DNA of 64,000 bases from an uncultured Bacteroidota bacterium (GTDB lineage Bacteria > Bacteroidota > Ignavibacteria > UBA10030 > UBA6906): positions 96,001 to 160,000 of the forward strand of contig CAVOYH010000004.1 in assembly GCA_963700635.1 (NCBI GenBank), read 5' to 3'. Shown here piece by piece: positions 1 through 19,502 of the stretch; within the stretch, counting starts at the first letter, position 1, and the number at the start of each line of letters is the position of its first letter. A program made the translations under genes and the position numbers. The notes under the pieces are model-generated. The model did no database searches and was not told the DNA's origin. It worked only from the letters and a program-made list of their open reading frames with translations.

Positions 1-1
1 G

Positions 2-130
2 GCAATATTTGCCCGGGACTACCCGCTGATTCTCGGTTGCACGCTTCTTGGAGGAATCGTCGTGGTAGCGGCGAATATCCTCTCCGACGTCCTCCGCGCC
101 TGGATTGATCCGCGCATCAGGATCACATAA
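2..130 (+). CDS. Oligopeptide/dipeptide ABC transporter permease (OppB/DppB family), 3' end only
   Basis: Frame 2 reads AIFARDYPLILGCTLLGGIVVVAANILSDVLRAWIDPRIRIT*, with the typical RDYP...DPRI C-terminus; an OppC-like gene follows. Confidence 0.85.
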   Translation, partial: AIFARDYPLILGCTLLGGIVVVAANILSDVLRAWIDPRIRIT

Positions 131-136
131 CTGCTC

Positions 137-1420
137 ATGAAAAGAATCCCCGTCATCCTTGCGAGTCTTTTCTTCGTGGCAGTCAGCGTGCTGCACTTTC
201 GGCTGATTTCCGCGAGTCTCACTTCCCTTGCGTCATGGTGCGTGCTGGTGGTAAGCCATCCCGGCGCGTTCGCGAGCTATTGGGTCCCACCACTCCTGGA
301 GTACTGGCTGGCCGGTGTGGCGTGGATAGGGGTGGGCTTCGGGGGCTTCCTGCATGTGATCCGGATTGGTAAACAACGGGATCACTCCAGGTCTGAAGCG
401 GACTCACACAGGTCGGCACGGGGACAGTGGTCGCGGCGCGTTATCGGGCTCGTCATATTTGTCGCCCTGACGTCACCCTTTCTCACCCCTATCGGTCCAA
501 ATGTACAGGGAAATCTCGTTACAACCCGGCTACAACCGCCCCTGTCAATGGGTTACGTGCGGGAGTATCTTGAGGAGGATGACACAAGCTCTGGATCCAC
601 TGATCGTCTACATCTGGTATTCAAACGAGCAGCCAACTATCTGCTTAATCGGACAACGCTGGTGGGCGGAAGCGCGGACAGGCTCCCGTCGGATTCCGGG
701 AGTGGAGGTGTTGTCGTCCGTGAATATCCCACCACGTTCCTGTTCGGGACCGATGATAATGCGAGGGATGTCTTTAGCAGGGTGATCGCAGGTTCGCGAG
801 TGTCGCTTGCCGTGGGCATGAGCGCTGCGCTCGGCGCATTGCTCATCGGTCTAGCGGTGGGACTCCCGGCGGGCCTGTCCCGCGGCACTGCCGGCATTGT
901 CCTTATGCGGATCACGGATGTGTTCCTTGCAATTCCGAGCCTGTTTCTTGTCATGGGAGGACTTGCCTTTGTTGGTGAGTCCATCACAACGATTATTCTG
1001 GTCCTTGCGGCGACGGGATGGATGGGAATTGCAAGAGTCGTGCGGGGAGAAGTTCTCTCTCTGCGCGACAGAGAATTTGTTCTGGCTGCAAAGATGTTGC
1101 GCGTGTCGAATTGGACGGTCATGGTACGGCATCTCTTGCCCAATCTCCGGCCTGTGATACTCACCGCCGCCGTACTGCAGTTTGCCAATGCGGTGCTGGG
1201 GGAAGCGGCGCTTGGTTTTCTCGGACTCGGTGTTCAACCACCTACGCCGACGTGGGGGAATATGATGGGGGAGGCGACGGGATATCTCGGCCTGGCATGG
1301 TGGGTGGGCGTGTTCCCCGGGGTTGTCCTGGCAACAGTCATCGTCTCTGCCCATTCGCTTGGTGAACGCACAACCATCACGGCGGATGTCGAAAGAACGG
1401 TCAAACACTCCCCACCATGA
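137..1420 (+). CDS. Oligopeptide/dipeptide ABC transporter permease (OppC/DppC family) with extended N-terminus
   Basis: Motifs FLFGTDDNARDVFSRVIAGSRVSL, EFVLAAK (EAA loop), HLLPN, EAALGFLGLGVQPPTPTWG. Confidence 0.9.
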   Translation: MKRIPVILASLFFVAVSVLHFRLISASLTSLASWCVLVVSHPGAFASYWVPPLLEYWLAGVAWIGVGFGGFLHVIRIGKQRDHSRSEADSHRSARGQWSRRVIGLVIFVALTSPFLTPIGPNVQGNLVTTRLQPPLSMGYVREYLEEDDTSSGSTDRLHLVFKRAANYLLNRTTLVGGSADRLPSDSGSGGVVVREYPTTFLFGTDDNARDVFSRVIAGSRVSLAVGMSAALGALLIGLAVGLPAGLSRGTAGIVLMRITDVFLAIPSLFLVMGGLAFVGESITTIILVLAATGWMGIARVVRGEVLSLRDREFVLAAKMLRVSNWTVMVRHLLPNLRPVILTAAVLQFANAVLGEAALGFLGLGVQPPTPTWGNMMGEATGYLGLAWWVGVFPGVVLATVIVSAHSLGERTTITADVERTVKHSPP

Positions 1421-4400
1421 TGATCAATCACCGATATCACATCGTGAACCCTCTGGGAGAGGGGGGGAATGCTCAGGTATTTCTGGTGGAAGATACGCTG
1501 GAGCGGGGCCAGCGATCCGCCATGAAAGTCTTCCACCGGCAGAGTCTGGATGCTCGTGCCGAGCTCGAGCACATCTGGAATGAAATCGCGATCCTCGCTA
1601 CGCTGCATCATCCCAATCTGGTGCACGTGTTTGATTTTGGGGTGGTACGGAGTTCTGAAGAAAAATCGCTGCTGGATCGTCGCTTTCTTACCATGGAATA
1701 TATTCAAGGCGTCAGCGCCGATGCATGGTGCCGTACCGTACCGTCCGGGCAGGACCGGGCCACACATCTCAAGCATGTTCTTCTACAGGTCCTGCAGGTG
1801 CTGGCGTATGTTCACAGGCGGGGGATTATTCACTTCGACATCAAGCCGGACAACCTCCTGGTGATCTCGGGCGGCGAATCGGGGAGCGGTCTCCCGCTTG
1901 TGAAACTGACGGACTTTGGTTTTAGCGTCCACATGGGAACGGCGCATGAACTGTCGCTGCGGGGTACTCTCGAATACACCGCCCCCGAATTGCTCCGGCG
2001 GGACCCATTTGATCATCGGGTCGATCTTTATTCGCTCGGTGTCACGCTGTATGAGCTGATGGAAGGTCGCTGTCCGTTTGAAGAGGGTAATCCTGTCGAA
2101 CTCATAAAGAAGGTCCTTACCACCAAACCTGAATTCCAGCAGTCCCTCGATCCGGCATATTCTCTCCTGCTCCCTCTTCTTAAAGGACTTCTTCACGAGG
2201 ATCCTTCCCATCGATTTGAATCCGCAGGCCAAGCCGCTCGCTTTCTTCTCCCGGAAGGAGGCGGTTTGTACACAGCGGGATTTGACATCATCTCAAAGCC
2301 GGTTTTTGTCGGACGTGAAACCGAAAAGAGCCGGATCGGCCGTGCTCTTTCAGCCCTGGGCACAGAGCATGCTGGAGAACCTGAGACCGCCATCCTCATG
2401 ACGGGACCGGAAGGAATCGGAAAAACCGCTCTTGTGTCGGAAGTGGTCCGCCAGGCGCGGACAGCAGATGTTCCGGTCGTGGAGGTGAAGCACGCTCAAC
2501 GCCATGTTCCATTCAGTGCGGCGCGTTCCCTGTTGTCGATTCTCAAAGCAGAGGTTCTCTCTCGTTCTGCACGCGGCCCAGAACTGACTGAACGATTCGC
2601 CGATGTGATTGATCCCCGTGCAGAACATGGTGACGGGGAGACGGGGGAGTTTCAAACCGGCTGGCTACTCGAACGGGAAAAGACGATTGAGTCGCAGGCG
2701 CGCTTCATCAATCAGGCCTCGCTGCTCTTTCCGGTTGTGATTGTTGTTGATGATGTGGATGTGCTGGACGGTGAATCCATGGAAGTGCTTCGAACGGTAC
2801 ACCGGGACGGCACTCCGGGGCGGCTCCTGCTTCTTTTGACGGCGCCAAGAGTAAGCGATCTCCCGTTCGCTGCAAGCGAAATCCCTCTGGGGGAACTCGA
2901 CGCCGAGACTGTTGTCGCCATGAGCACTTCGACGATATCTCCTCCCACTGTCGGGGAGGCGATAGGGCTCCGCTTGCACCTGCTGTACGGAGGAACACCC
3001 TCGATTCTCGTTGAAGCGCTCTACTCGGCTGGAAAGCTGTTGTACGGCGAATCCCTGGATGAAATTGCAGACAGGTCGGGCCTTGCAGAGAAGGTGACCC
3101 TCAAGCTTCCACGCGACCTTGACCAGTTTCTGCTCAAGCGTTACCAATCGCTCGATCGGGGACTCCAGTTGACTCTGGATGTTCTGTCATGCTTCAGTGG
3201 ATCAGCACGGCTTGAAGTGGTCGAGGCAGTCCTGCCTTTCCAGCGCCAACGGACCCAGGCATACCTCTCGTTGCTCGAAGCCCACGGGCTTATAACATCC
3301 CACGATGCTGGCAAACGGTTTGCCGTGCGTCACACAAAACTGAAAGCCCTGATCAACTCTGCCCTGCAAGATGCCAGGCCTGCCACCCATTTGTTCATTG
3401 CATCCACATTGGAGGGCATCGCCGGAGCCCGTTCGTTTGATGATCTGCAGGAACTTGCCTACCAGTACACGCAAGCCGGACAGAGTGTTGAGGCACTGCT
3501 CTGGCTTGAAGCCGCCGGGGATGAAGGAACACAGCTCTCGGCCCACCAACAGGCGGGGCAACTTTACCGGCGGGCGATGGACCTGAGTCGCCCTGCGGAT
3601 GGCGTGAGCGTTGAGCGGCTCACTGTGAAACTTGCGGAGTCGCTGTTCCGCGGTGGTGCATTTCGTGATGCGATTGAGCTTGCGACACACGTTCTCGGCA
3701 CGGAACTTCTTGATGCCACTCACACAACGGTCCTCCACAAAATTGCCGGTCTCGCACAGTCACGGTTGGGTGAGTACCGGGAGGGGAAAAAGCACATTGA
3801 GACTGCCCTTGAGACGTGCGGTGACGCTCGGGAGAACGTTGAGCTTACGCAGGAACTGGTGGGCATTGACATCGCCCTGGGCAGTTTTCTCGAAGCAGAA
3901 CAGGCCAGTATTGTTCAGCTGGATCGGGCAAAAAGCCTCGGCAATCAGCTGAGTCTGGCTGCCATCTATACGGACCTGGGAATAGCAACGTTTTTCCAGG
4001 AATTGTATGACCGTTCGATTGAGTATTTCCGTGAGTCGATGGAAATCTATATAAGCGCAAAACACCACATGCATGCCGTTGATGCACAAATGAATATCGG
4101 CAACGTGATGAGCGCAAAGGGGAGGATTGCTGACGCAATTGAATGCTGGAGTGAGGCTCTCAGACAAAGCCAGGAATACGGTACGTTGAATCAACAGGCG
4201 CAGATCCTTAACAATATCGGCATTGCGCACTTTAAACTGAAACGATTCCGGGAGGCCAGGAGTTTCTATAACAACGCAAAAACGTTGTTTCATCGTCTGG
4301 ACTCAAAACAGGGGAGCGCGTACATTCTCACGAATCTTGGTGAGGTAGGATTCGCCGAGGGGCAGTATGAGCCGGCCCTTCTGATGTGGAAAGATGCTCT

Positions 4401-5124
4401 GCAACACTATTATGAAATGCACGATAGTCTGGGGATAGTTGAGACGCTGCTCCAGCTCGCTCAGGTTCATCTTGTCCTGGGTGATGGTGTATCCGCAAGC
4501 GCGATTCTTGGAGAAGCAGAGGCTCTGGTGAAGAGCAAGAATCTAGAGAGCTTTCGGGCTCACATGCTCTTCGTGCGTGGGATGTCTCTGATGCTTCTGG
4601 GGAACCATGATGCAGCCCGGAGTGCGTTCATGGACGCAGAGGAGCGTATGCAGGAGAGCGGGGACATCGCGCAGAGGTTATTGCTCGCGGTGCGCATGGC
4701 CGAATGTGACCATCATAGGGGCGAAGTCGATTCAGCGGTGGCCCTGGCCCGTCATGCGCTCGAGTTAGGGGAAACGCACACTCAACCCAACATCATCGCT
4801 GAGGCGTGCTTGCTCCTGGGAACGATTGCGAAGGCCTCTCCATCACGCGTTCAGGAAAAGGCGCTCCTGTTGTTCCGCACGGGGTTTGAGGCAATTGCGG
4901 AAGAACCGGTAACTGAGGTGACGTGGAAACTTGCGATGGCCCTTGGAGGTGAATTTCATGCACGCGGACAAAGAGAGAAAGCGAAGGGATTCCTGTCACA
5001 AGCGAAACTGGTGCTGCAGTTTTTTCTTTCACATTTTGCATCTTCTGAGCTCAGGAATCAATATCTTGCAGCAGGAAGCAAGGATGCGGTGATGAAAAAT
5101 CTTGATTCATTTTTGACTACGTAG
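1417..5124 (+). CDS. Ser/Thr protein kinase fused to STAND-like P-loop ATPase and TPR repeats
   Basis: Kinase motifs LGEGGNAQV, AMKVF, HFDIKPDN, DFG, YTAPE, DLYSLG; FVGRE, Walker A GPEGIGKT, Walker B VIVVDDVD; C-terminal TPR-like helices (NIGNV, NNIGIAH, TNLGEV). ATGA overlap with oppC. Confidence 0.9.
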   Translation: MMINHRYHIVNPLGEGGNAQVFLVEDTLERGQRSAMKVFHRQSLDARAELEHIWNEIAILATLHHPNLVHVFDFGVVRSSEEKSLLDRRFLTMEYIQGVSADAWCRTVPSGQDRATHLKHVLLQVLQVLAYVHRRGIIHFDIKPDNLLVISGGESGSGLPLVKLTDFGFSVHMGTAHELSLRGTLEYTAPELLRRDPFDHRVDLYSLGVTLYELMEGRCPFEEGNPVELIKKVLTTKPEFQQSLDPAYSLLLPLLKGLLHEDPSHRFESAGQAARFLLPEGGGLYTAGFDIISKPVFVGRETEKSRIGRALSALGTEHAGEPETAILMTGPEGIGKTALVSEVVRQARTADVPVVEVKHAQRHVPFSAARSLLSILKAEVLSRSARGPELTERFADVIDPRAEHGDGETGEFQTGWLLEREKTIESQARFINQASLLFPVVIVVDDVDVLDGESMEVLRTVHRDGTPGRLLLLLTAPRVSDLPFAASEIPLGELDAETVVAMSTSTISPPTVGEAIGLRLHLLYGGTPSILVEALYSAGKLLYGESLDEIADRSGLAEKVTLKLPRDLDQFLLKRYQSLDRGLQLTLDVLSCFSGSARLEVVEAVLPFQRQRTQAYLSLLEAHGLITSHDAGKRFAVRHTKLKALINSALQDARPATHLFIASTLEGIAGARSFDDLQELAYQYTQAGQSVEALLWLEAAGDEGTQLSAHQQAGQLYRRAMDLSRPADGVSVERLTVKLAESLFRGGAFRDAIELATHVLGTELLDATHTTVLHKIAGLAQSRLGEYREGKKHIETALETCGDARENVELTQELVGIDIALGSFLEAEQASIVQLDRAKSLGNQLSLAAIYTDLGIATFFQELYDRSIEYFRESMEIYISAKHHMHAVDAQMNIGNVMSAKGRIADAIECWSEALRQSQEYGTLNQQAQILNNIGIAHFKLKRFREARSFYNNAKTLFHRLDSKQGSAYILTNLGEVGFAEGQYEPALLMWKDALQHYYEMHDSLGIVETLLQLAQVHLVLGDGVSASAILGEAEALVKSKNLESFRAHMLFVRGMSLMLLGNHDAARSAFMDAEERMQESGDIAQRLLLAVRMAECDHHRGEVDSAVALARHALELGETHTQPNIIAEACLLLGTIAKASPSRVQEKALLLFRTGFEAIAEEPVTEVTWKLAMALGGEFHARGQREKAKGFLSQAKLVLQFFLSHFASSELRNQYLAAGSKDAVMKNLDSFLTT

Positions 5125-5138
5125 GGGATTCGGCCACC

Positions 5139-6572
5139 GTGGCTTCACGAAAAGATCGATTCGTCATTCTGCTCTCGGGTAGAAAAGAAATCATGGAACG
5201 CGTGCGGCGGTATGTCCGTTTGACCGACGCGATGCATCTTCAGTTTGTGTCCTCGCCAAGCTATCTGTCCGGAAGGGCCATTTTCAAAACGCCGGATCTT
5301 GTGCTGCTTGACGTCACAAAAGATACGGTCATTCTCCGGTCGGCAATCAGTGAGTTTGCGTCCCAGTTCCCGGATGTACCCATTCTGGCCATGACGCGGG
5401 CGGCCGACCACTCCTTCGCGGTGGAACTTGTGAAGCTGGGTGTGTCTGCATATTTTGTCGTCCCGGATGAGCAGCGAAAAATCATGGAACAGATCACATT
5501 ATTCCACAATGAATGGATCGCCAGGAGGGCAAAAAAGAAATTTGTGGATCTGCAGAAGGAGACATACGACTTCAGACATATTATCGGGACCTCACCGCTC
5601 CTGAAAGTCACCATGGAACGGGCTCAAAAAGTCATCATAAACAGCACCATGACGGTCCTGATCACCGGCGAAACCGGAACGGGAAAGGAACTTTTTGCCC
5701 GGGCGATTCACTACAACGGGAAAAACAAGAACAGCCCGTTCGTTGATATAGCCTGTACGGCACTTCCGGAGACCCTCCTCGAGTCTGAGCTGTTTGGCTA
5801 TGAGAAAGGCGCGTTTACCGACGCGAAGGAGAGGAAAATCGGTCTATTCGAACTGGCCGGTGACGGATCTATCTTTCTTGATGAAATCGGCGATATTTCC
5901 ATTGCGACACAATCAAAACTCCTGAAGGTGATCGAAGACCGCTCGATGAGAAGAGTCGGTGGCGTTCGGGATGTCCCGGTGCGGGCACGTATTATTGCGG
6001 CAACGAGCGCTGACCTTGATGCGAAGATGCGGGCGGGGGAGTTTCGAAAAGACCTGTACCACCGGCTCAAAATACTTCCTCTTGAATTGCCGCCGTTGAG
6101 GGACAGGAAGGATGACATACCGCTGCTTGTGAAGGAATTCCTTCGGACGTTCAACCAGGCGTACAAAAAGGAGATTAAGGGGCTGACTCCCCTCGCATTG
6201 CAGGCCCTTATGGAACATGAATGGGAGGGGAATGTCCGGGAACTCAAACATTGTATGGAACGCGCCGTCCTTCTGGAAGAACGGAGCTGGATTACGGAGC
6301 AGGATTTTGACTTCGCAATCGCGAAAGCACGCCCCACGAAGCGCACACTGATTGCCAACAGTCCCGAAAGCCTGCCTCCGAAAGAAGTCGATACGCTCAT
6401 GCTCCTGATCCCCCTTGACCACGCTTCATTACAGGAAGTGCAGAGAACGTGTGTCCTGAAGGTGCTGGACCATGTGGGGGGAAACAAGATGAAGGCGTCA
6501 AAAATTCTCAAAATTTCAAGGCCACGCCTCGACCGTATCCTCAAGGACGCCGACGACGACCCTGAAGAATGA
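5139..6572 (+). CDS. Sigma54-dependent enhancer-binding regulator (atypical REC-AAA+-Fis HTH)
   Basis: GETGTGKE, ESELFGYEKGAFTDA, IFLDEIGD, FRKDLYHRL, GNVREL; C-terminal HTH GNKMKASKILKISR; N-terminal receiver-like DLVLLDVT. Confidence 0.92.
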   Translation: MASRKDRFVILLSGRKEIMERVRRYVRLTDAMHLQFVSSPSYLSGRAIFKTPDLVLLDVTKDTVILRSAISEFASQFPDVPILAMTRAADHSFAVELVKLGVSAYFVVPDEQRKIMEQITLFHNEWIARRAKKKFVDLQKETYDFRHIIGTSPLLKVTMERAQKVIINSTMTVLITGETGTGKELFARAIHYNGKNKNSPFVDIACTALPETLLESELFGYEKGAFTDAKERKIGLFELAGDGSIFLDEIGDISIATQSKLLKVIEDRSMRRVGGVRDVPVRARIIAATSADLDAKMRAGEFRKDLYHRLKILPLELPPLRDRKDDIPLLVKEFLRTFNQAYKKEIKGLTPLALQALMEHEWEGNVRELKHCMERAVLLEERSWITEQDFDFAIAKARPTKRTLIANSPESLPPKEVDTLMLLIPLDHASLQEVQRTCVLKVLDHVGGNKMKASKILKISRPRLDRILKDADDDPEE

Positions 6573-6608
6573 TGTAACGTCCTGGATGAGCGAGTGTAAC
6601 GTTTTAGA
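6573..6608 (+). promoter_or_regulatory. Putative tandem upstream activator sites (UAS) for the sigma54 activator
   Basis: TGTAACGTCCTGGA (6573-6586) and TGTAACGTTTTAGA (6595-6608), 22 bp apart, about 120-155 bp upstream of a -24/-12 element. Confidence 0.5.
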
Positions 6609-6727
6609 GCATCACTTGACCTGCGTCACCTCATTCCCTGCCTCCCCCGAAACCACGAATTTTCATCCCGATCGCCGATCTGGCCCGGCATGCTCCATTT
6701 TGTACAATTCTCCACGATGACCTTTTG

Positions 6728-6743
6728 TGGCACAAAGGTTGAT
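6728..6743 (+). promoter_or_regulatory. Putative sigma54 (-24/-12) promoter
   Basis: TGGCAC-AAAGG-TTGAT versus consensus TGGCAC-N5-TTGCW; correct spacing, GA instead of GC at -12; just downstream of a sigma54 activator gene. Confidence 0.6.
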
Positions 6744-6920
6744 CTCTTTACCAGCAGACGCAATCGTGAGACCATACGAAAGTCACTCTTGAGCGGAAAT
6801 CGGTATTCAGTCAAAGCGGAGGGCACAATGCAAGAAGAGGACCAACACATTATCATCAACAGATTCACGCGCTTCATCCAGGCTCTACACATCGATAGAA
6901 GTATCAGAAGGAGTAAAATC

Positions 6921-7520
6921 ATGAACTTTTCAACTGTGAAAGCGGGCTTGCTTATCGGCGCTCTGTTCGTCACCCTGTTGACGGGGTGCCGGAATGATGG
7001 TCCGGTGGGCGTGGAAAACGCCCCATCAGCCACCCAGGAGCCTGACTTCCTGAAGATGCCCAAAAACCTGTCACTCCAGAAAGTCCTTGAATCGTCGGCA
7101 CTGATAACTCCTGAGGATGGCGGACAACTCAAGCTGGAATTTAAGTATGACTACACCACCAGCACGGGAGAAGTAAAAGAGTTGGACGTCAAGATGAAGT
7201 TGAAGTTTCCCAAAGGCGCCGTCCAACATCCGCTTGTTGCCAGGTTACGCATTGACGATGAGGTCCTGAGATCGAATGTGGACATTACGTTCAACCCGCA
7301 CGGTTCCACCTTCCTCACGCCGGCCATTCTTGACGTGGACGTGAGCGGGATGGATGTGAACGGGATGAGTCCCGATTCTCAGGTGTGGCTGTATTATGAT
7401 GAGGATGGTACGTGGGTGAAGATGGTCGCCAAAAAGGTTGAATTCAAATTCAAAGGTGGCAAGATCAAGTGCGATCATGGCGAGCTGCCGCACTTTTCAC
7501 GGTATGCGTTCGGCCGGTAG
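6921..7520 (+). CDS. Lipoprotein with ZU5-like domain and C-terminal HFS motif
   Basis: AAGGAG SD before ATG 6921; signal peptide with lipobox LLTG-C23; ZU5-like segments GGQL, LKFPKGAV, FNPHGSTFLTPAIL; ends ELPHFSRYAFGR*. Confidence 0.75.
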   Translation: MNFSTVKAGLLIGALFVTLLTGCRNDGPVGVENAPSATQEPDFLKMPKNLSLQKVLESSALITPEDGGQLKLEFKYDYTTSTGEVKELDVKMKLKFPKGAVQHPLVARLRIDDEVLRSNVDITFNPHGSTFLTPAILDVDVSGMDVNGMSPDSQVWLYYDEDGTWVKMVAKKVEFKFKGGKIKCDHGELPHFSRYAFGR

Positions 7521-7570
7521 GACCAACACATCAACCAATCACGGTGATTCGGTCTCACAACAGCGAAACA

Positions 7571-8818
7571 ATGAAAACAGAAACCGTCACAAAACAGATC
7601 CTCGGCATAGTCAGCGCTTATTGCGAGCCGAATGTGGTGACGGGTCTCGTAAAAGACCTGCGACGATCGGACGCGCTTGAGCATAGAATGTTGGCGGGAA
7701 AGAGCGGCGGCCACATACGTCGGAAGGACCGGGACCTCGTACTGGAGGAGCAGGGAAAACTGGATCGTTTGATTACGCTCTGTCAAGAACGGCTAAGAAT
7801 GGAGGACGTGTGTCAGGTGTTGCTGGGCATCGGGGACGTCTTCAAGGTTCACGGCGAGACACACCGGGCTGAGGAGCTGTACTCGATGGTTGTTGCGCAG
7901 GACGATCCACATCGGAAGAATGGGGTTGTCGCGGAAGCGTACCTGCGCCGTGGAGAAATATACTCCCGCAGAGCCCAGTGGAAACAATCCGCCTCCGACC
8001 TTGCCCGCAGCCGCGCGATTGTCTCAGAGTTGAACGATTTTGAGGCCCTTGGCCGGGTTGACAACATTCTTGGCACGAACCATGCGGAACAGGGGAAGAT
8101 CAATAAGGCCATAGAATTCTTCGAACGTGCCTTCAAGCAGTTCGAACACACCCGGCAGACACAGATGGCTGGCGTTGCGCTGATGAATCTCGGCATTACG
8201 TACAACATGATCGGTGAATACGACTCCGCCGTGACCTACTATACGCGGGCAAAATCCTATTTTGAGAACGTCGGCGATGTGAATCGGCTTTCGGAGGTGC
8301 ATCACAACACGGGAATGACGCATCTTTCCAGACGGATGTTCAAGGACGCAATCGGGGAGTTTAATACGAGTTACATGCTGTCGGCGTCGCTGCAGAATCT
8401 GTCCCTCATGGGACTGGCAAATCTGGGGAAAGCCCATGCGTATTATCATCTTCGCGACTTCCCCATGGCAGTAAAGCTGGTAAGCCAGGCGGTCGACTAC
8501 GCTACGAAATCGGGCGATCGATTGAGTCTCGCAGACGCCTATAAGGTAAAAGGGATGATCCATCGGGAAATGCAGAGTTATGATTCCGCTGCATCATACC
8601 TCCGGACAAGCGTTCGGATAAATACCGAACTCCACAATCAGTTGAACCTGGCGGAGTCATATTTTGAGATCGGCGTGCTGGAAGTGAAACGTCAGAACAC
8701 CGACGAGGCGTTACAGGCGTTTCAGAAGGCCCGCGCCGCGTTTAAGAAACTTGGCGCCCACAAGGATGTGAAAAAGACCATGGACCAGATAGTGGCTCTC
8801 GGAGGGACCAACGGATGA
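7571..8818 (+). CDS. Tetratricopeptide repeat protein (cytoplasmic)
   Basis: Repeated TPR-like helices (NILGTNH, MNLGITY, HNTGMTH, KVKGMIH, FEIGVLE); no signal peptide; ATG 7571 preferred over ORF-track start 7469. Confidence 0.8.
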   Translation: MKTETVTKQILGIVSAYCEPNVVTGLVKDLRRSDALEHRMLAGKSGGHIRRKDRDLVLEEQGKLDRLITLCQERLRMEDVCQVLLGIGDVFKVHGETHRAEELYSMVVAQDDPHRKNGVVAEAYLRRGEIYSRRAQWKQSASDLARSRAIVSELNDFEALGRVDNILGTNHAEQGKINKAIEFFERAFKQFEHTRQTQMAGVALMNLGITYNMIGEYDSAVTYYTRAKSYFENVGDVNRLSEVHHNTGMTHLSRRMFKDAIGEFNTSYMLSASLQNLSLMGLANLGKAHAYYHLRDFPMAVKLVSQAVDYATKSGDRLSLADAYKVKGMIHREMQSYDSAASYLRTSVRINTELHNQLNLAESYFEIGVLEVKRQNTDEALQAFQKARAAFKKLGAHKDVKKTMDQIVALGGTNG

Positions 8819-10113
8819 ACCTTCAGGATCTGCTGGGGCAGGAATCGACGGGGCTGGGGGACATTGCGGAAGGAAGAACTTCACCATCGCGGATGCGGGA
8901 TCTTGAAATGATCCTGAATGTTGTCCGCAAGATCAACACTTCCCTTGTCCTTTCGGATGTTCTGGAGCTGGTTCTCGACGAGGCAATCCGGATCACACGT
9001 GCAGAGCGTGGTTTTCTAATGCTCGCCGGCAATGACCGGGTTTTACAGTTTGTTGTCGGCCGTAATGCCGCGGGCGAGTCTATCCAGGCTGAAAGCTTTC
9101 AGGTGAGTTCGAGTGTGCTGGAAGACGTCTTCGCGACGGGTGAGTCTCTGTGCATCGAGAATGCGTTACACGACGAACGTTTTGAGCGAAGACAGAGCAT
9201 CATGAGTCTCGAGCTGCAGACGATCATCTGCAGCCCACTCCGGACGCCGGAGGACACGATCGGCGTTATCTACGTTGACAGCAAGTACATACAGGCCGTC
9301 GACAAGGCGGACACGCTCCATCTGTTTGAGATTCTGGCCGGTCAGGCGGCCATTGCCATCAAAAACGCGCGCCTGTATGAAGATCTCAAATCGACGTATG
9401 AGGACCTCAAACACGCCAATGCGCAGGTGATCAAGTCCGAACGCATGGCAATGAAAGGACAGATCGCCGGCGAAGTGAGCCACGAGCTCAAGAATATGAT
9501 CGCGATAGTGCTCCTGCAACTTGAAGTTCTCCGCTTGAAGCTTGACAGTTCCACGGTGGACGAGATCAGGTCGATGGTCGAGAAGACGGCAGACGGGGCG
9601 CGCAAGATCCGGGGATTTTCGGAAAGCCTGTTGACCAGGAATCGTTCCACCGACGCGGTGCTTCCCGTGAATCCCAATGATTTGTCACGAGACTTTTTTG
9701 ACTTTATCAAGGTGCTTCCCAAATTCAAGCACAACCAGCTTTCCCTGGTCCTCGGCGAAAACGTCCCACGGGTGCGGATGGATTTGGACCAGATTCAGCA
9801 GGTGCTTTTGAATCTTGTGAATAATGCCGTCGAGGCTTTTGCAGATGCCGCGATTGTTATCCAAACCGAATTCGATGCCGATTCAAACGTTGTCAGAATG
9901 TCCGTGCAGGATGACGGACCCGGCATCGATGACGCCATCAGAGATAAGCTCCTCAAGGAGATGGTCACCACAAAGATTGACGGCCATGGCTACGGGCTGC
10001 CCATCTGCCGTCAAATTATTGAACATCACGGCGGCACTATCCGAATCGACTCCTCAACGAATCGCGGTGCGAAGTTTGTCATGACATTCCCGGTGGACAC
10101 AGCAACGGGATAA
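8815..10113 (+). CDS. GAF domain sensor histidine kinase (soluble)
   Basis: GAF (AERGFLML...IICSPL...GVIYVD...AAIAIKNARLY); H-box VSHELKN; N-box NLVNNA; DDGPGI; GHGYGLPIC. ATGA overlap with the TPR gene. Confidence 0.92.
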   Translation: MNLQDLLGQESTGLGDIAEGRTSPSRMRDLEMILNVVRKINTSLVLSDVLELVLDEAIRITRAERGFLMLAGNDRVLQFVVGRNAAGESIQAESFQVSSSVLEDVFATGESLCIENALHDERFERRQSIMSLELQTIICSPLRTPEDTIGVIYVDSKYIQAVDKADTLHLFEILAGQAAIAIKNARLYEDLKSTYEDLKHANAQVIKSERMAMKGQIAGEVSHELKNMIAIVLLQLEVLRLKLDSSTVDEIRSMVEKTADGARKIRGFSESLLTRNRSTDAVLPVNPNDLSRDFFDFIKVLPKFKHNQLSLVLGENVPRVRMDLDQIQQVLLNLVNNAVEAFADAAIVIQTEFDADSNVVRMSVQDDGPGIDDAIRDKLLKEMVTTKIDGHGYGLPICRQIIEHHGGTIRIDSSTNRGAKFVMTFPVDTATG

Positions 10114-10147
10114 CTATCCACGCACGGAAACGCGGCGAACAGGAAAA

Positions 10148-10981
10148 ATGACGACACCGATGAAGCAGACGCTACACGATCCGTTCTCTGATCAAAGCTC
10201 CGTCCAGATCGCGACACACACGGATATTGGAAACGTCCGGACCCTGAATGAAGACAGCATCGCCGTCGTGCCTTCCACCGATCCTGCACAGTCACGTATG
10301 GGGACAATGTTGATCGTGGCCGACGGTCTCGGTGGATACAATGCAGGAGACGTTGCGAGCAAGCTCGTCACGACGGCGTTGCCGGAACTGTATCGTTCTG
10401 GGACCGGCAAGGATTATGTATCCGACCTGATCAATGCCGTGCACGCGTGTAATGGGGTGGTGCGTAACGCCGCTGACATGTCAGAGCGTATGCGAGGAAT
10501 GGGAACAACGGTTGTGGCTGCGGTGCTTGTCGGACAGTACGTGATCTTTGCGCATGTGGGTGACAGCAGGGGATATTTGTTTCGGCGTGGAGAGCTGGTC
10601 CATCGAACCACGGACCATTCGTTACGAAACGTGGCTACGGGCCTGGTCGGAGGCGATGTGCCAGATCGTTTTTCGCATGTCCTCACCCGTGCGATCGGGC
10701 CGACGCCGGATCTTCTCGTTGACGTTACCGCCCATCGCCTCGAAAAAGACGACGTTGTCCTCTTGTGCTCCGACGGCTTGACAAATTGTGTGGGTGACGA
10801 CGTACTACGAACCATCGTGCTGGAGTATTCCCCTGCGGACGCGGCCCGGCTGCTGGTCAACATGGCGAATGATGAAGGCGGGGAGGACAACATCAGCGTG
10901 ATCGTCGCGCGAATCGAAAATCTCCCTGCACGCGACAGTGATGAAGCGTTGCTGGGAGTACAACCCTACCTCGTTCCCTAA
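10148..10981 (+). CDS. PP2C-family Ser/Thr protein phosphatase (PrpC/Stp type)
   Basis: RTLNED, VADGLGG, GMGTT, HVGDSRGY, LTRAIG, LLCSDGL, GGEDNISV. Confidence 0.93.
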   Translation: MTTPMKQTLHDPFSDQSSVQIATHTDIGNVRTLNEDSIAVVPSTDPAQSRMGTMLIVADGLGGYNAGDVASKLVTTALPELYRSGTGKDYVSDLINAVHACNGVVRNAADMSERMRGMGTTVVAAVLVGQYVIFAHVGDSRGYLFRRGELVHRTTDHSLRNVATGLVGGDVPDRFSHVLTRAIGPTPDLLVDVTAHRLEKDDVVLLCSDGLTNCVGDDVLRTIVLEYSPADAARLLVNMANDEGGEDNISVIVARIENLPARDSDEALLGVQPYLVP

Positions 10982-11077
10982 GAATCCCCTCAGGAAACAT
11001 ATCGATGCCGCGTGACGTTCTCCCTCGAGGATCCGGCCGTGGGATTCAGAGCAATGGTCCTGCCGAGAGAACGTGAG

Positions 11078-11153
11078 TGGTAGCCTTAACGGGAATCGAA
11101 CCCGTATTTCGGCCTTGAGAGGGCCGCGTCCTAAACCGTTAGACGATAAGGCC
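11078..11153 (-). tRNA. tRNA-Glu (anticodon CTC)
   Basis: Reverse complement GGCCTTATCGTCTAACGGTTTAGGACGCGGCCCTCTCAAGGCCGAAATACGGGTTCGATTCCCGTTAAGGCTACCA forms a cloverleaf with encoded CCA. Confidence 0.95.
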
Positions 11154-11157
11154 AGGG

Positions 11158-11228
11158 CTGCCCCGCAAGGATTCGAACCTCGATAAACAGATCCAGAGTC
11201 TGCTGTCTTGCCGTTAGACGACGGGGCA
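11158..11228 (-). tRNA. tRNA-Gln (anticodon CTG)
   Basis: Reverse complement TGCCCCGTCGTCTAACGGCAAGACAGCAGACTCTGGATCTGTTTATCGAGGTTCGAATCCTTGCGGGGCAG; CCA not encoded. Confidence 0.95.
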
Positions 11229-11244
11229 ATCTATTTCGACCCTC

Positions 11245-11273
11245 AATCTACTAAAAGGAGTTCAGAATGTCAA
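11245..11273 (-). promoter_or_regulatory. Sigma70-type promoter for the tRNA-Gln/tRNA-Glu operon
   Basis: Minus strand TTGACA-N17-TAGATT just upstream of tRNA-Gln. Confidence 0.7.
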
Positions 11274-11289
11274 CTTTTGCGCCGTATTC

Positions 11290-11318
11290 TTGACTTTCCT
11301 CTCTAAATCTCCTATGTT
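11290..11318 (+). promoter_or_regulatory. Sigma70-type promoter for the ompA-like gene
   Basis: TTGACT-N17-TATGTT, divergent from the tRNA promoter; GGAGG SD before ATG 11361. Confidence 0.6.
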
Positions 11319-11360
11319 GATGCGTGTTCTTTCTGCCCATGACCGCCTGGAGGCGCAACG

Positions 11361-12901
11361 ATGTTCAGGATTCTCTCAACTATATTCGGCCTAAGCCTCT
11401 GCCTTTTGTTACTTACCGGGGGAGTAAACGCTCAACAAACTGAAGGACGGTGGGCGATCGGACTCTCCGGAGGTACGAATCTCTGGTTTAACGATCTTAA
11501 TCAAATGAAGCTCGGATTCGGAGGAGCGGCAACGGTCCGCTACGGATTCACTCCCGTATTCTCTCTGGGCCTCTTCGCCGGCATGGAGGAACTGAAGTCT
11601 TCTCAGTCCCCCCTCTCCCCGATCTGGCCTATTCCTATCTGAAAATCAACGCGTATCCTGTCGCGCTTTCGGCGTGGTTTCACCTTGCCCCGGGCAGCGG
11701 CTTCGCGCCCTACATCCGCATCGGCGGCGGTCTGATGGCATACCATCGAAAGACTGCCGGAAACCTGTACGCCCCGGACGACAAGATGCGTGCGACAATC
11801 ATCATTCCGCTGGGCATTGGCTTTGATATTTTTGCCTCAAAGAAGTTCGCGATAAATGTTGATTTTGGCGTCGCGACCATGTCCAACAAAATCGATCTCC
11901 GTGACAACTCTTCACCCGATGGATATGTCACAGGCCGGGTGGGATTTTCGTGGTATCCGGGATCGGGTGATGCGGATGACCGCGACGAGGATGGACTTAC
12001 CGACGGACAGGAACGCCGGCTGGGGACCGATCCGGAAAACCCCGACAGCGATGGTGATGGGTTGAACGACGGAGACGAACTCCGCCGCTACCGTACAAAT
12101 CCGCTGCGGTCCGACAGTGACGGCGACGGACTGACCGATGGGGATGAGGTGACGAAATACAAAACCGATCCCTCCCGGTACGACACCGACGGTGACGGCC
12201 TCTCCGACGGCGATGAACTGCAAAAGTACAACACCGATCCGACACGTGTCGACACTGACGGCGATGGCCTCACCGACGGTGACGAAATCCTCCGCCTGAA
12301 AACAGATCCGCTGAAGGTGGATACCGACGGTGACGGACTTTCGGACTGGGACGAAGTAAAATCCTATCGGACGGATCCAGCGAACCCGGATACCGACGGG
12401 GACGGTATTATTGATGGCGAAGAGGTTGCCAAGTACCGCACGAATCCGCTCAAAGCGGACTCCGATGGCGGGGGATTGATTGACGGTGCGGAAGTTATCC
12501 GGGGAACGAACCCCCTTGATCCCAAAGACGATGCAGTGAAAGAAACGATCGTCCTGGAACGAGGGAAAAACTTAATGCTCCAGGGGATCAATTTTAACAC
12601 CGGGAGCGCGACCCTGACGAGTGATTCCGAGGAGATGCTGGAAAGGGTGTTCGCCGGACTGGTGTCGAATCCGAAAGTCCGTGTGGAAATCGCAGGATAT
12701 ACGGACAATGTCGGCTCGCGGGTAGCGAATGAACAACTTTCCCAACGGAGGGCCGAGGCCGTTCGTGCGTGGCTGATCGCAAAGGGCATTGCCGCAAGCC
12801 GCCTGACTGCGCGCGGTTACGGTATCCGGAATCCTATCGACACAAACACCACGGCGGAAGGTCGTGCACGCAACCGCCGGATTGAGTTCCACGTGCAGTA
12901 A
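11361..12901 (+). CDS. OmpA-family outer membrane protein (beta-barrel, Ca-binding DxDGDG repeats, OmpA C-terminal domain); one-base frameshift near 11608-11620
   Basis: Signal peptide and barrel strands in 11361-11642 continue in another frame (YSYLKINAYPV...APYIRIGGGL) into ORF 11735-12901, which has AGYTDNVG, NEQLSQRRA, GRARNRRIEF. Confidence 0.85.
11978..12533 (+). repeat. Eight tandem ~23-aa thrombospondin-type-3-like Ca-binding repeats
   Basis: D(T/S)DGDGL(T/S)DGDE...(Y)xT(D/N)P repeated eight times with about 69-nt period. Confidence 0.85.
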
Positions 12902-18972: not shown

Positions 18973-19502
18973 TTCCATGGAGGGCCGTATCACGCACAGT
19001 CCGGTTTAAGAACCCGTGGTGGTCGTACGGTCTTGACACCGTGGTCCTGCCGAACGGCAAGGAAGGTGAATACCACTACGTCCATTCATTGGGATCGGCG
19101 TGTGTCATCCCTGTGCTGGATGAGGGGAGTATCCTCCTCGTAAACCAGTACCGCTATCTGGGAAATAAAGAAAGTCTGGAGTTCCCCTGCGGGGCTGTGA
19201 AGGATGGATCCTCACACGACCAAACTGCCTGGCATGAGCTTGCGGAGGAAACGGGGTACTCAGCTGTGACGTTGGTGCAGATTGGCGCATTCAATCCGTA
19301 CAATGGCGTGACAGACGAGATCTGTAACGTCTATGTGGCCCGTGAACTCCGGCACATCGGGGCGGCTCCCGATGAGACTGAACAATTTGAACTCGTCCGG
19401 TTGCCCGTGCAGGAAGTAGACAGAAGAATCCGCGAAGGACTCATCTGGGATGGCATGAGTATCGCCGCATGGCATCTGGCCCGCGCACGAGGTCTTCTCT
19501 AA
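18963..19502 (+). CDS. NUDIX hydrolase (ADP-ribose pyrophosphatase-like)
   Basis: QYRY...EFPCG...[10 protein letters not shown] Nudix box. Confidence 0.88.

Follow-up and report, generated by a model that had tools for sequence, protein, structure and literature searches.

A lipoprotein-TPR module linked to an oligopeptide importer in an uncultured Ignavibacteria bacterium and its possible role in peptide signalling

Genes, promoter and regulators of the locus

The 64,000-nt stretch of DNA analysed here (hereafter the window) comes from an uncultured Bacteroidota bacterium of the class Ignavibacteria (assembly GCA_963700635.1, contig CAVOYH010000004.1, positions 96,001 to 160,000 of the forward strand); coordinates are positions in the window, and the features of interest lie on the + strand. 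Six co-oriented genes span 1417-10981 and encode a Ser/Thr kinase, a sigma-54 activator, a lipoprotein, a tetratricopeptide repeat (TPR) protein, a histidine kinase and a PP2C phosphatase. Together with the genes of an Opp-type peptide importer they make up a regulatory module that might, as discussed below, operate as a peptide autoinduction loop. The gene set, the domains and the two ATGA overlaps given in an earlier note on this DNA were borne out by Pfam and by the sequence itself. The module consists of two units, the upstream one comprising oppABC, the kinase gene and the activator gene, and the second comprising the genes for the lipoprotein, the TPR protein, the histidine kinase and, in this genome, PP2C.

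The kinase gene (1417-5124) overlaps oppC (137-1420), which encodes a permease subunit of the importer with a BPD_transp_1 domain, in an ATGA at 1417-1420. Its product is a cytoplasmic Ser/Thr kinase with a Pkinase-AAA_16 (STAND)-TPR architecture, assigned with Pfam and supported by full-length orthologues, and it shows MalT-like and AfsR-like TPR matches. The catalytic Lys (in AMK), the DxKxxN motif (D-IKPDN), DFG and APE are intact; the protein reads HFD in place of HRD and is therefore a non-RD kinase. The adjoining gene (5139-6572) encodes a sigma-54 enhancer-binding protein composed of a receiver-like domain, an AAA+ domain (Sigma54_activat, E = 2.5e-62) and HTH_8. The Pfam Response_reg match of this activator was sub-threshold (20.9 bits versus a cut-off of 30.2), and in an alignment of 13 orthologues the receiver lacked both the acidic pair (SG or CG instead) and the Lys (V, I, L or F instead) in all 13, with the phosphoacceptor-position Asp changed to His or Glu in 3. 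Such a pseudo-receiver makes canonical His-Asp phosphotransfer from the GAF histidine kinase unlikely. It also renders more plausible the proposal of the earlier note that the Ser/Thr kinase activates this regulator, while the phosphorylation itself stays conjectural. The loop that contacts sigma-54 reads GAFTDA, not GAFTGA, in 13 of 13 activator orthologues; a pattern search of the genome returned 12 loops of the enhancer-binding-protein type, among them 2 with GAFTDA and 1 with GAFTNA.

The histidine kinase gene (8815-10113) overlaps the TPR gene in a second ATGA (8815-8818), which couples the two, and encodes a soluble GAF-HisKA-HATPase_c protein with H, N and G boxes. The last gene (10148-10981) encodes a Stp1/IreP-like PP2C Ser/Thr phosphatase by Pfam and NCBIfam. 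The motifs of both proteins are intact, including the metal-binding Asp motifs of PP2C. PP2C was found in 5 of the 9 loci of the window type that have sequence downstream of the histidine kinase gene (the window, L017, L024, L028 and L039); it is an accessory member of the cluster and not the integral part for which the earlier note took it. The operon ends before two convergent tRNA genes on the - strand (11081-11228), which were the only matches in an Rfam search, and a terminator and promoter scan of 6500-11800 gave nothing useful. Among sequencing runs, a search for the genome returned two DNA runs from one study, in which it has a small share, and none of RNA.

The lipoprotein gene (6921-7520) most likely starts at 6921 (MNFSTVKAGLLIGALFVTLLTGC), with a GGAG upstream, rather than at 6690, because a promoter-like element falls within the longer open reading frame and because the orthologues begin at the signal peptide. 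This element, TGGCACAAAGGTTGA at 6728-6742, is a -24/-12 sigma-54 promoter (TGGCAC-N5-TTGA) with a single mismatch to TGGCAC-N5-TTGC. With one mismatch allowed, the strict consensus has 3 matches in the window against 4.6 expected, which is not above chance, and we therefore relied on comparative footprinting. The intergenic regions between the activator and lipoprotein genes of 12 loci were aligned by eye and searched with the looser pattern TGGCAY-N5-TYG, which occurs exactly once in each of the 12, at 156-221 nt past the activator stop codon, and 7 times in the other 453,664 strand-bases that these loci comprise; the loci are related and do not count as independent trials. Directly after the activator stop codon, the same regions carry two tandem sites 21-22 bp apart, which in several loci are clear palindromes (TGTAAC-N5-GTTACA). 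In the window, TGTAACGT is present twice, at 6573 and 6595, giving two upstream activator sites (TGTAACG, 22 bp apart, 6573-6602), and the promoter lies about 135-155 bp beyond the tandem sites. Promoter and sites constitute a phylogenetic footprint, since the surrounding intergenic sequence is otherwise diverged. The genome encodes rpoN, and in two rearranged loci (L023 and L025) the promoter goes with the lipoprotein gene, not with the activator gene. The -24/-12-like promoter and the tandem repeats that the earlier note had described before the lipoprotein half of the cluster are thus found in 12 of 12 orthologous intergenic regions.

A further sigma-54-like match at 19451 was rejected, as it lies inside a coding region. 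The exact tandem TGTAACG-N15-TGTAACG has one other copy in the genome (G000 contig C5:103606-103634, corresponding to L052 about 9607-9635, - strand). We considered this copy as an additional target of the activator and rejected it, given that it is antisense within a 465-aa open reading frame and has no nearby sigma-54 element; it is probably fortuitous, though only about 0.03 exact matches are expected by chance. From the -12 element to the lipoprotein start, the leader (6743-6920) measures about 177 nt, compared with 45-88 nt in the seven other loci where the start could be placed. The leaders of the closest relatives have short GTCAC/GGTGAC inverted motifs, and Rfam returned no match.

The lipoprotein family and its H-F-S motif

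The window's lipoprotein has 199 aa, a signal peptide ending in the lipobox LTGC (Cys23), the triplet H191-F192-S193 and the C-terminal tail SRYAFGR. It matched no family in Pfam or NCBIfam. An exhaustive search collected 428 representative clusters at E <= 1e-3; the family is unnamed and deserves a family definition. The only invariant columns among 71 aligned members are the lipobox Cys and H-F-S, and the three residues of the triplet were likewise invariant in a set of 78 sequences. Of 151 sequences, 149 have the motif at a distance of 7-20 residues from the C-terminus, and in 128 of these 149 the tail, counted from the Ser, is 7-9 residues long, with the consensus S-R-Y-A-[FILV]-[GA]. AlphaFold models (pLDDT 87.6 and 90.0) are all-beta and place H-F-S in a turn that joins the last two strands; DSSP assigned these to residues 181-189 and 194-198. 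Judged from sequence and models, the position and the motif match the self-cleavage site of ZU5/Nup98/GAIN-like (MAIN) domains, and the protein may cleave itself there. ZU5 was also the commonest weak Pfam match within the family (8 of 71 members, best E = 7.9e-4), and in one neighbouring Atlas cluster it is annotated in 51% of members.

The tails form lineage-specific classes, longer family members bear propeller-like or discoidin-like ectodomains, and paralogue arrays of up to 7 lipoproteins accompany two TPR paralogues. In low-GC Ignavibacteriaceae metagenome-assembled genomes (MAGs), such arrays comprise 5-7 lipoprotein paralogues of about 186 aa (L035 5060-12140 and L032 7170-10185), whose tails are either SRYGFVN-like or SRY[AVS]F[IV][KR]K-like. 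Two TPR paralogues and an SBP_bac_5 gene stand between or after the lipoprotein genes, and a divergent PAS histidine kinase gene lies upstream. The lipoprotein gene of L039 (9798-10560) seems disrupted, with in-frame stops and a tblastn coverage below 40%, while the C-terminus IPHFSRYCFGR is still readable. One genome (G047 contig C4; L011/L021) has a second, unlinked lipoprotein paralogue (L011 9729-10319) with its own sigma-54-like element, TGGCATAGTGGTTGCA. This gene is followed by three large proteins with the C-terminal sorting domain of the type IX secretion system (T9SS) and by no TPR gene; upstream of it lie an insertion sequence element and the gene of a sigma-54 activator with a canonical receiver.

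A conserved C-terminus could alternatively serve as a recognition or sorting tag for a dedicated protease or sorting machinery, in which case the signalling genes would merely regulate an envelope protein. We regard this explanation as very improbable. It has a precedent in the PEP-CTERM system, which, in the accessible part of its description, links conserved C-terminal signatures to a sigma-54 two-component system and a TPR protein (PMC1569441). The cluster proteins do match NCBIfam PEP-CTERM regulator models, weakly and far under the cut-offs. Sortase- and exosortase-type signals have a transmembrane segment, and none follows the motif here. Moreover, the residues that never vary, His-Phe-Ser, are exactly those of the catalytic triplet in self-cleaving domains, and no candidate processing enzyme is conserved in the compared loci. 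A PEP-CTERM-type sorting signal and an outer-membrane beta-signal were rejected as the principal reading of the C-terminus, given the identity of the invariant residues, the lack of a transmembrane segment after the motif and the many tails that end in a non-aromatic residue.

Linkage to the TPR protein and the Opp importer

The gene following that of the lipoprotein (7571-8818, with 7571 as the most likely start) encodes a cytoplasmic protein of 415 aa with no signal peptide. It is TPR-like throughout, including the N-terminal 150 residues, and contains no HTH or other DNA-binding domain. When its profile was compared with the PDB, Rap phosphatases were among the best natural bacterial matches (RapF, E = 4e-17), a generic similarity, as the eukaryotic LGN/Pins proteins score higher. 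We determined the distribution of both genes across 200 sampled genomes of the class, taking as TPR orthologues full-length matches at E <= 1e-74 (the next best matches begin at 6e-41). The lipoprotein family is present in 36 of the 200 genomes and the TPR orthologue also in 36, with both in 34; by their coordinates, the two genes are immediate neighbours on one strand, the lipoprotein gene first, in 31 of these 34. Because 34 of 36 genomes have both genes and 31 of 34 have them adjacent, we consider the lipoprotein-TPR pair to be the conserved core of the module. A complex prediction of the TPR protein with lipoprotein residues 170-199 scored 0.29 (mark 0.32), which speaks neither for nor against binding.

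The importer genes oppA (SBP_bac_5) and oppB lie just upstream of the window, with oppD and oppF (two ABC ATPases with oligo_HPY) divergent, and oppC and the kinase gene are neighbours in most loci. This genome has no family-5 binding protein other than the SBP_bac_5 of the cluster. SBP_bac_5 was present in 35 of the 36 lipoprotein-positive genomes of the class sample, and lipoprotein and SBP_bac_5 are carried by the same genomes in families f21 (11/12), f22 (8/17) and f27 (7/7). In the window's order, three of the four genomes with SBP_bac_5 are the three lipoprotein carriers. The link persists in loci with neither kinase nor activator gene, where an SBP_bac_5 gene comes after the TPR genes (L032, L035, L036 and L038) or oppABC precedes the lipoprotein gene (L027). 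The Opp importer belongs to the module as its most consistently linked partner after the TPR protein, and the boundary drawn in the earlier note, which left it out, has to be extended. The genomic link is strong and may reflect peptide import by this Opp. Upstream of the window, beyond the opp genes, lie genes (L018 6199-8736 and 10460-11506) for a GDSL-lipase protein whose Ig domains are of the HYDIN/ASH type, a Na+/H+ exchanger and a T9SS-sorted protein.

Comparison of gene orders was based on local tblastn around hits in relatives and on 21 loci from named Ignavibacteria-type MAGs. The order oppC-kinase-activator-lipoprotein(s)-TPR-histidine kinase was found in 9 of the 21 loci and in L017, and L023 and L025 have the same genes in a different order. 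Other loci are reduced to oppC-lipoprotein-TPR (L027), to lipoprotein arrays with TPR genes (L030, L032, L035, L036 and L038) or to the lipoprotein gene alone (L021, L037 and, at a contig end, L031). More permutations were seen in twelve additional regions, taken from other families of the class, for example kinase-histidine kinase-lipoprotein-TPR-oppA-oppB-oppC in L042 and lipoprotein-TPR-kinase-histidine kinase beside opp genes in L047; L050 is also shuffled. The genes therefore co-occur, in the same or a shuffled order, in several families, as the earlier note would require of a real system. A search of the genome contigs for related loci with the lipoprotein alone as query returned none.

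Regulators that are cotranscribed with a transporter commonly sense the substrate of that transporter, and here oppC overlaps the kinase gene. The module could thus be a nutrient-peptide sensor, in which oligopeptides from the environment enter through Opp and are detected, as such or as a derived metabolite, by the TPR protein and the STAND-TPR kinase. The lipoprotein, induced by the activator, would be only an output, such as an envelope protein for peptide capture or adhesion. Any cleavage at H-F-S would then be a maturation step after which the domain retains the strand. Provided that the organism uses peptides, its only family-5 system must also serve nutrition. This explanation agrees as well with the association that GAIN and MAIN cleavage products retain, according to the accessible part of a preprint on MAIN domains (10.64898/2026.05.12.724683), with the resemblance of the tail to a conserved structural strand, with the propeller-like or discoidin-like ectodomains of longer family members and with the one lipoprotein paralogue that adjoins T9SS cargo genes and not a TPR gene. 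It leaves unexplained why the lipoprotein gene is tied to a gene for a cytoplasmic TPR protein in 31 of 34 genomes, why the tail after the presumed cleavage site is so short (7-9 residues in 128 of 149) with nothing attached to it, and why arrays of lipoproteins stand beside paired TPR paralogues and an SBP gene. Weighing these points, we think nutrient sensing, the chief alternative to the loop discussed below, possible and rather unlikely.

A possible peptide loop, related systems and genomic setting

We favour, with a probability of roughly 0.4, the reading that the module is a peptide autoinduction loop that works like the Rap-Phr/RRNPP systems, with cleavage, import and TPR binding as steps that we infer. 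The exported lipoprotein would cleave its own Phe192-Ser193 bond, in the manner of ZU5/Nup98/GAIN-like (MAIN) domains at H-F-S, and its last strand would become a free peptide of 7-9 residues (here SRYAFGR). Once out of the lipoprotein domain, the peptide would be taken up by Opp. In the cytoplasm, the separate TPR protein would read it and modulate the histidine kinase, whose gene is translationally coupled to that of the TPR protein. The STAND kinase would detect the peptide as well, through its own TPR sensor, and would switch the pseudo-receiver activator on by Ser/Thr phosphorylation. The activator would then raise sigma-54 transcription of the lipoprotein operon, closing a positive feedback, and PP2C, where present, would reset the circuit.

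Several observations weigh against this autoinduction loop. Cleavage, peptide release, import and binding are all inferred, and the cleaved strand remains bound in GAIN and MAIN domains as the accessible part of the preprint describes them (10.64898/2026.05.12.724683). The tail may be structural, for its S-R-Y-A-hydrophobic start is conserved across lineages and alternates like a buried beta-strand. Foldseek searches of the PDB with the 199-residue model and with a 150-residue domain model gave 0 matches at E <= 1e-3, the top TM-scores being 0.2-0.34 and all to unrelated proteins; as Foldseek may miss small beta-sandwiches, this result lowers the claim of superfamily membership without excluding it. 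Searching PDB sequences with the family profile gave no match even at E <= 10, and the ZU5 hidden Markov model (PF00791) missed the lipoprotein genes in 5 genomes that carry the family. Accordingly, the lipoprotein shares with the ZU5/Nup98/GAIN-MAIN superfamily the H-[FL]-[ST] turn, and these searches placed it there neither by fold nor by profile. The self-cleaving lipoprotein of the earlier note is supported in its invariant H-F-S before the last strand and unconfirmed, by Foldseek and profiles, as a known autoproteolytic fold.

The genomic evidence has its own exceptions. SBP_bac_5 is found in 109 of 164 lipoprotein-negative genomes too, so that Opp is not exclusive to the module, and a 95% complete genome (G080) has the lipoprotein and the TPR protein and yielded no SBP_bac_5 match at E <= 1e-20. 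In G102, 1.1 Mb of sequence separates the lipoprotein gene from the TPR gene. Among 21 further loci, the sigma-54 motif precedes the first lipoprotein gene in 8 and was not found in 13, and L042, L047 and L050 are without the activator. Sigma-54 control is therefore common outside the clade, not universal, and the control of the lipoprotein operon by sigma-54 and this activator, as proposed in the earlier note, is supported by the conserved promoter of the window-type loci and does not extend to every locus. The cluster contains no canonical receiver to serve the histidine kinase. In addition, a periplasmic lipoprotein in a diderm would mean cell-autonomous, not quorum, signalling.

The retention of the cleaved strand also suggests another role. 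In the models H-F-S sits in the turn before a well-packed last strand, and the accessible part of the preprint reports that GAIN and MAIN products stay together until force or heat is applied (10.64898/2026.05.12.724683). The lipoprotein could thus be a sensor of envelope integrity or mechanical stress, constitutively cleaved and keeping its strand like the Stachel of adhesion GPCRs, until unfolding, shear or proteolysis frees the peptide and Opp imports it as a damage signal to the TPR sensors. The evidence for it is otherwise the same as for the autoinduction loop. Positive autoregulation is unusual for a damage reporter, and the lineage-specific tail classes and paralogue arrays better fit a diversification of signals; we hold it to be improbable.

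Among known systems, the lipoprotein is most comparable with the MAIN, ZU5, Nup98 and GPS-GAIN domains, in that it has an extracytoplasmic all-beta domain with an invariant H-F-S before the last strand. The strand after the motif, S-x-aromatic-A-hydrophobic, also resembles the Stachel pattern of GAIN domains. For MAIN domains, the accessible part of the preprint documents cleavage of HFS between F and S by Edman sequencing of Bacillus subtilis YfkN, gives the protein order as signal peptide, ectodomains, MAIN domain and C-terminal wall anchor with an average of 158 kDa, and notes the lack of any known signalling role for the C-terminal fragment (10.64898/2026.05.12.724683). ZU5 autopeptidases have been described in bacteria, namely in bacterial toxins, in the accessible part of another report (PMC3482391). 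In contrast to these proteins, the family members considered here have about 190 aa, an N-terminal lipid anchor and only 7-9 residues after the motif (128 of 149), so that the MAIN architecture is reversed and not reproduced. Some of them may be within the list of 15,000 proteins to which the accessible part of the preprint refers (10.64898/2026.05.12.724683).

The likeness to Rap-Phr and other RRNPP systems lies in the gene for an exported precursor that adjoins the gene for a cytoplasmic TPR receptor. It would extend to the use of the precursor's C-terminal end as a signal and to its import by an oligopeptide permease, a role of Opp in RRNPP signalling that is covered in the accessible part of PMC10569065. 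As in Rap, the TPR protein is all-helical, lacks a DNA-binding domain and would have a two-component protein as its target; it showed no RRNPP-specific domain. The differences are considerable. The precursor is a folded 199-aa lipoprotein and not a small propeptide, and only the predicted product length (7-9 aa) agrees with a peptide of 5-10 residues. Its processing would be autocatalytic and not carried out by secreted proteases, the host is a diderm outside the Firmicutes, and the output side comprises a Ser/Thr kinase of the STAND type together with a GAF histidine kinase and a sigma-54 activator.

The activator resembles the NtrC family in its AAA+ sigma-54 interaction domain, HTH_8, tandem sites about 135-155 bp from a -24/-12 promoter and the presence of rpoN, and differs from it in having no canonical receiver, in the GAFTDA loop and in an adjacent regulator gene that encodes a Ser/Thr kinase, not a histidine kinase. 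The architecture Pkinase-AAA_16-TPR is that of PknK. The kinase of the window shares it, being PknK/AfsR-like and accompanied by a Stp1-type PP2C as in Hanks kinase/PP2C pairs; it is different in being non-RD and operon-linked to an Opp importer and a sigma-54 activator, and its PP2C is not constant.

The literature searched, with the exception of the supplementary tables of the MAIN preprint, contained no combination of an unnamed lipoprotein with TPR and Opp and no H-F-S domain tied to a cytoplasmic TPR/Opp pair. 'HFSRY' occurred in full texts only in an unrelated use, and searches for RRNPP in Gram-negatives returned Firmicutes-centred work only. The system appears to be undescribed, its parts being of known kinds and their combination new, which agrees with the statement of the earlier note that no characterised system has this composition.

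To our knowledge, signalling by peptides that Opp imports and cytoplasmic TPR receptors read is considered a speciality of Firmicutes, and we know of bacterial autoproteolytic GAIN/ZU5-type domains tied only to surface-protein release, not to signalling. If true, the autoinduction loop would join Opp/TPR peptide signalling with GAIN/ZU5-type autoproteolysis, provide the first signalling role for the short post-cleavage fragment of such a domain and represent a protease-independent maturation of a peptide signal. It would probably also be a case of a pseudo-receiver sigma-54 activator under the control of a STAND Ser/Thr kinase. In a more specific and doubtful form of this idea, the lipoprotein is a lipid-anchored miniature GAIN/ZU5-like domain that would cut off its own last strand, an untethered 'Stachel' imported by a dedicated Opp system and read by TPR proteins that would feed the Ser/Thr kinase, the histidine kinase and the activator, as a protease-free diderm counterpart of RRNPP quorum sensing; the lineage-specific tail classes and paralogue arrays would then supply signal diversity. 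Read conservatively, the locus is still a well-delimited regulatory module of wide conservation, and its lipoproteins form an unnamed family of 428 clusters. The hypotheses are directly testable, given a small soluble protein, synthetic heptapeptides and a defined promoter.

The module is unevenly distributed among near relatives. The lipoprotein occurs in 6 of 60 close relatives and in 0 of 5 genomes of the same genus. These five genomes share the DNA of the window from about 11080 on (69-78% identity), and positions 1-11076 are not common to them, generic AAA+ similarity aside; on the other side, shared sequence resumes beyond the opp genes, about 9-10 kb ahead of the window. With both flanks shared and 1-11076 not, the whole module lies in a variable segment next to the tRNA genes, which mark its right edge, and the opp-signalling module may be an island that was gained or lost. 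Downstream of the tRNA genes and outside the module, two further features are common to the same-genus genomes. The first is a small open reading frame resembling an outer-membrane protein beta-barrel (11361-11642). The second (11735-12901) is an OmpA-family protein with eight bacterial TSP3 calcium-binding repeats, and its weak Binary_toxB match (26.3 bits, cut-off 25) reflects these calcium-binding repeats, not a toxin.

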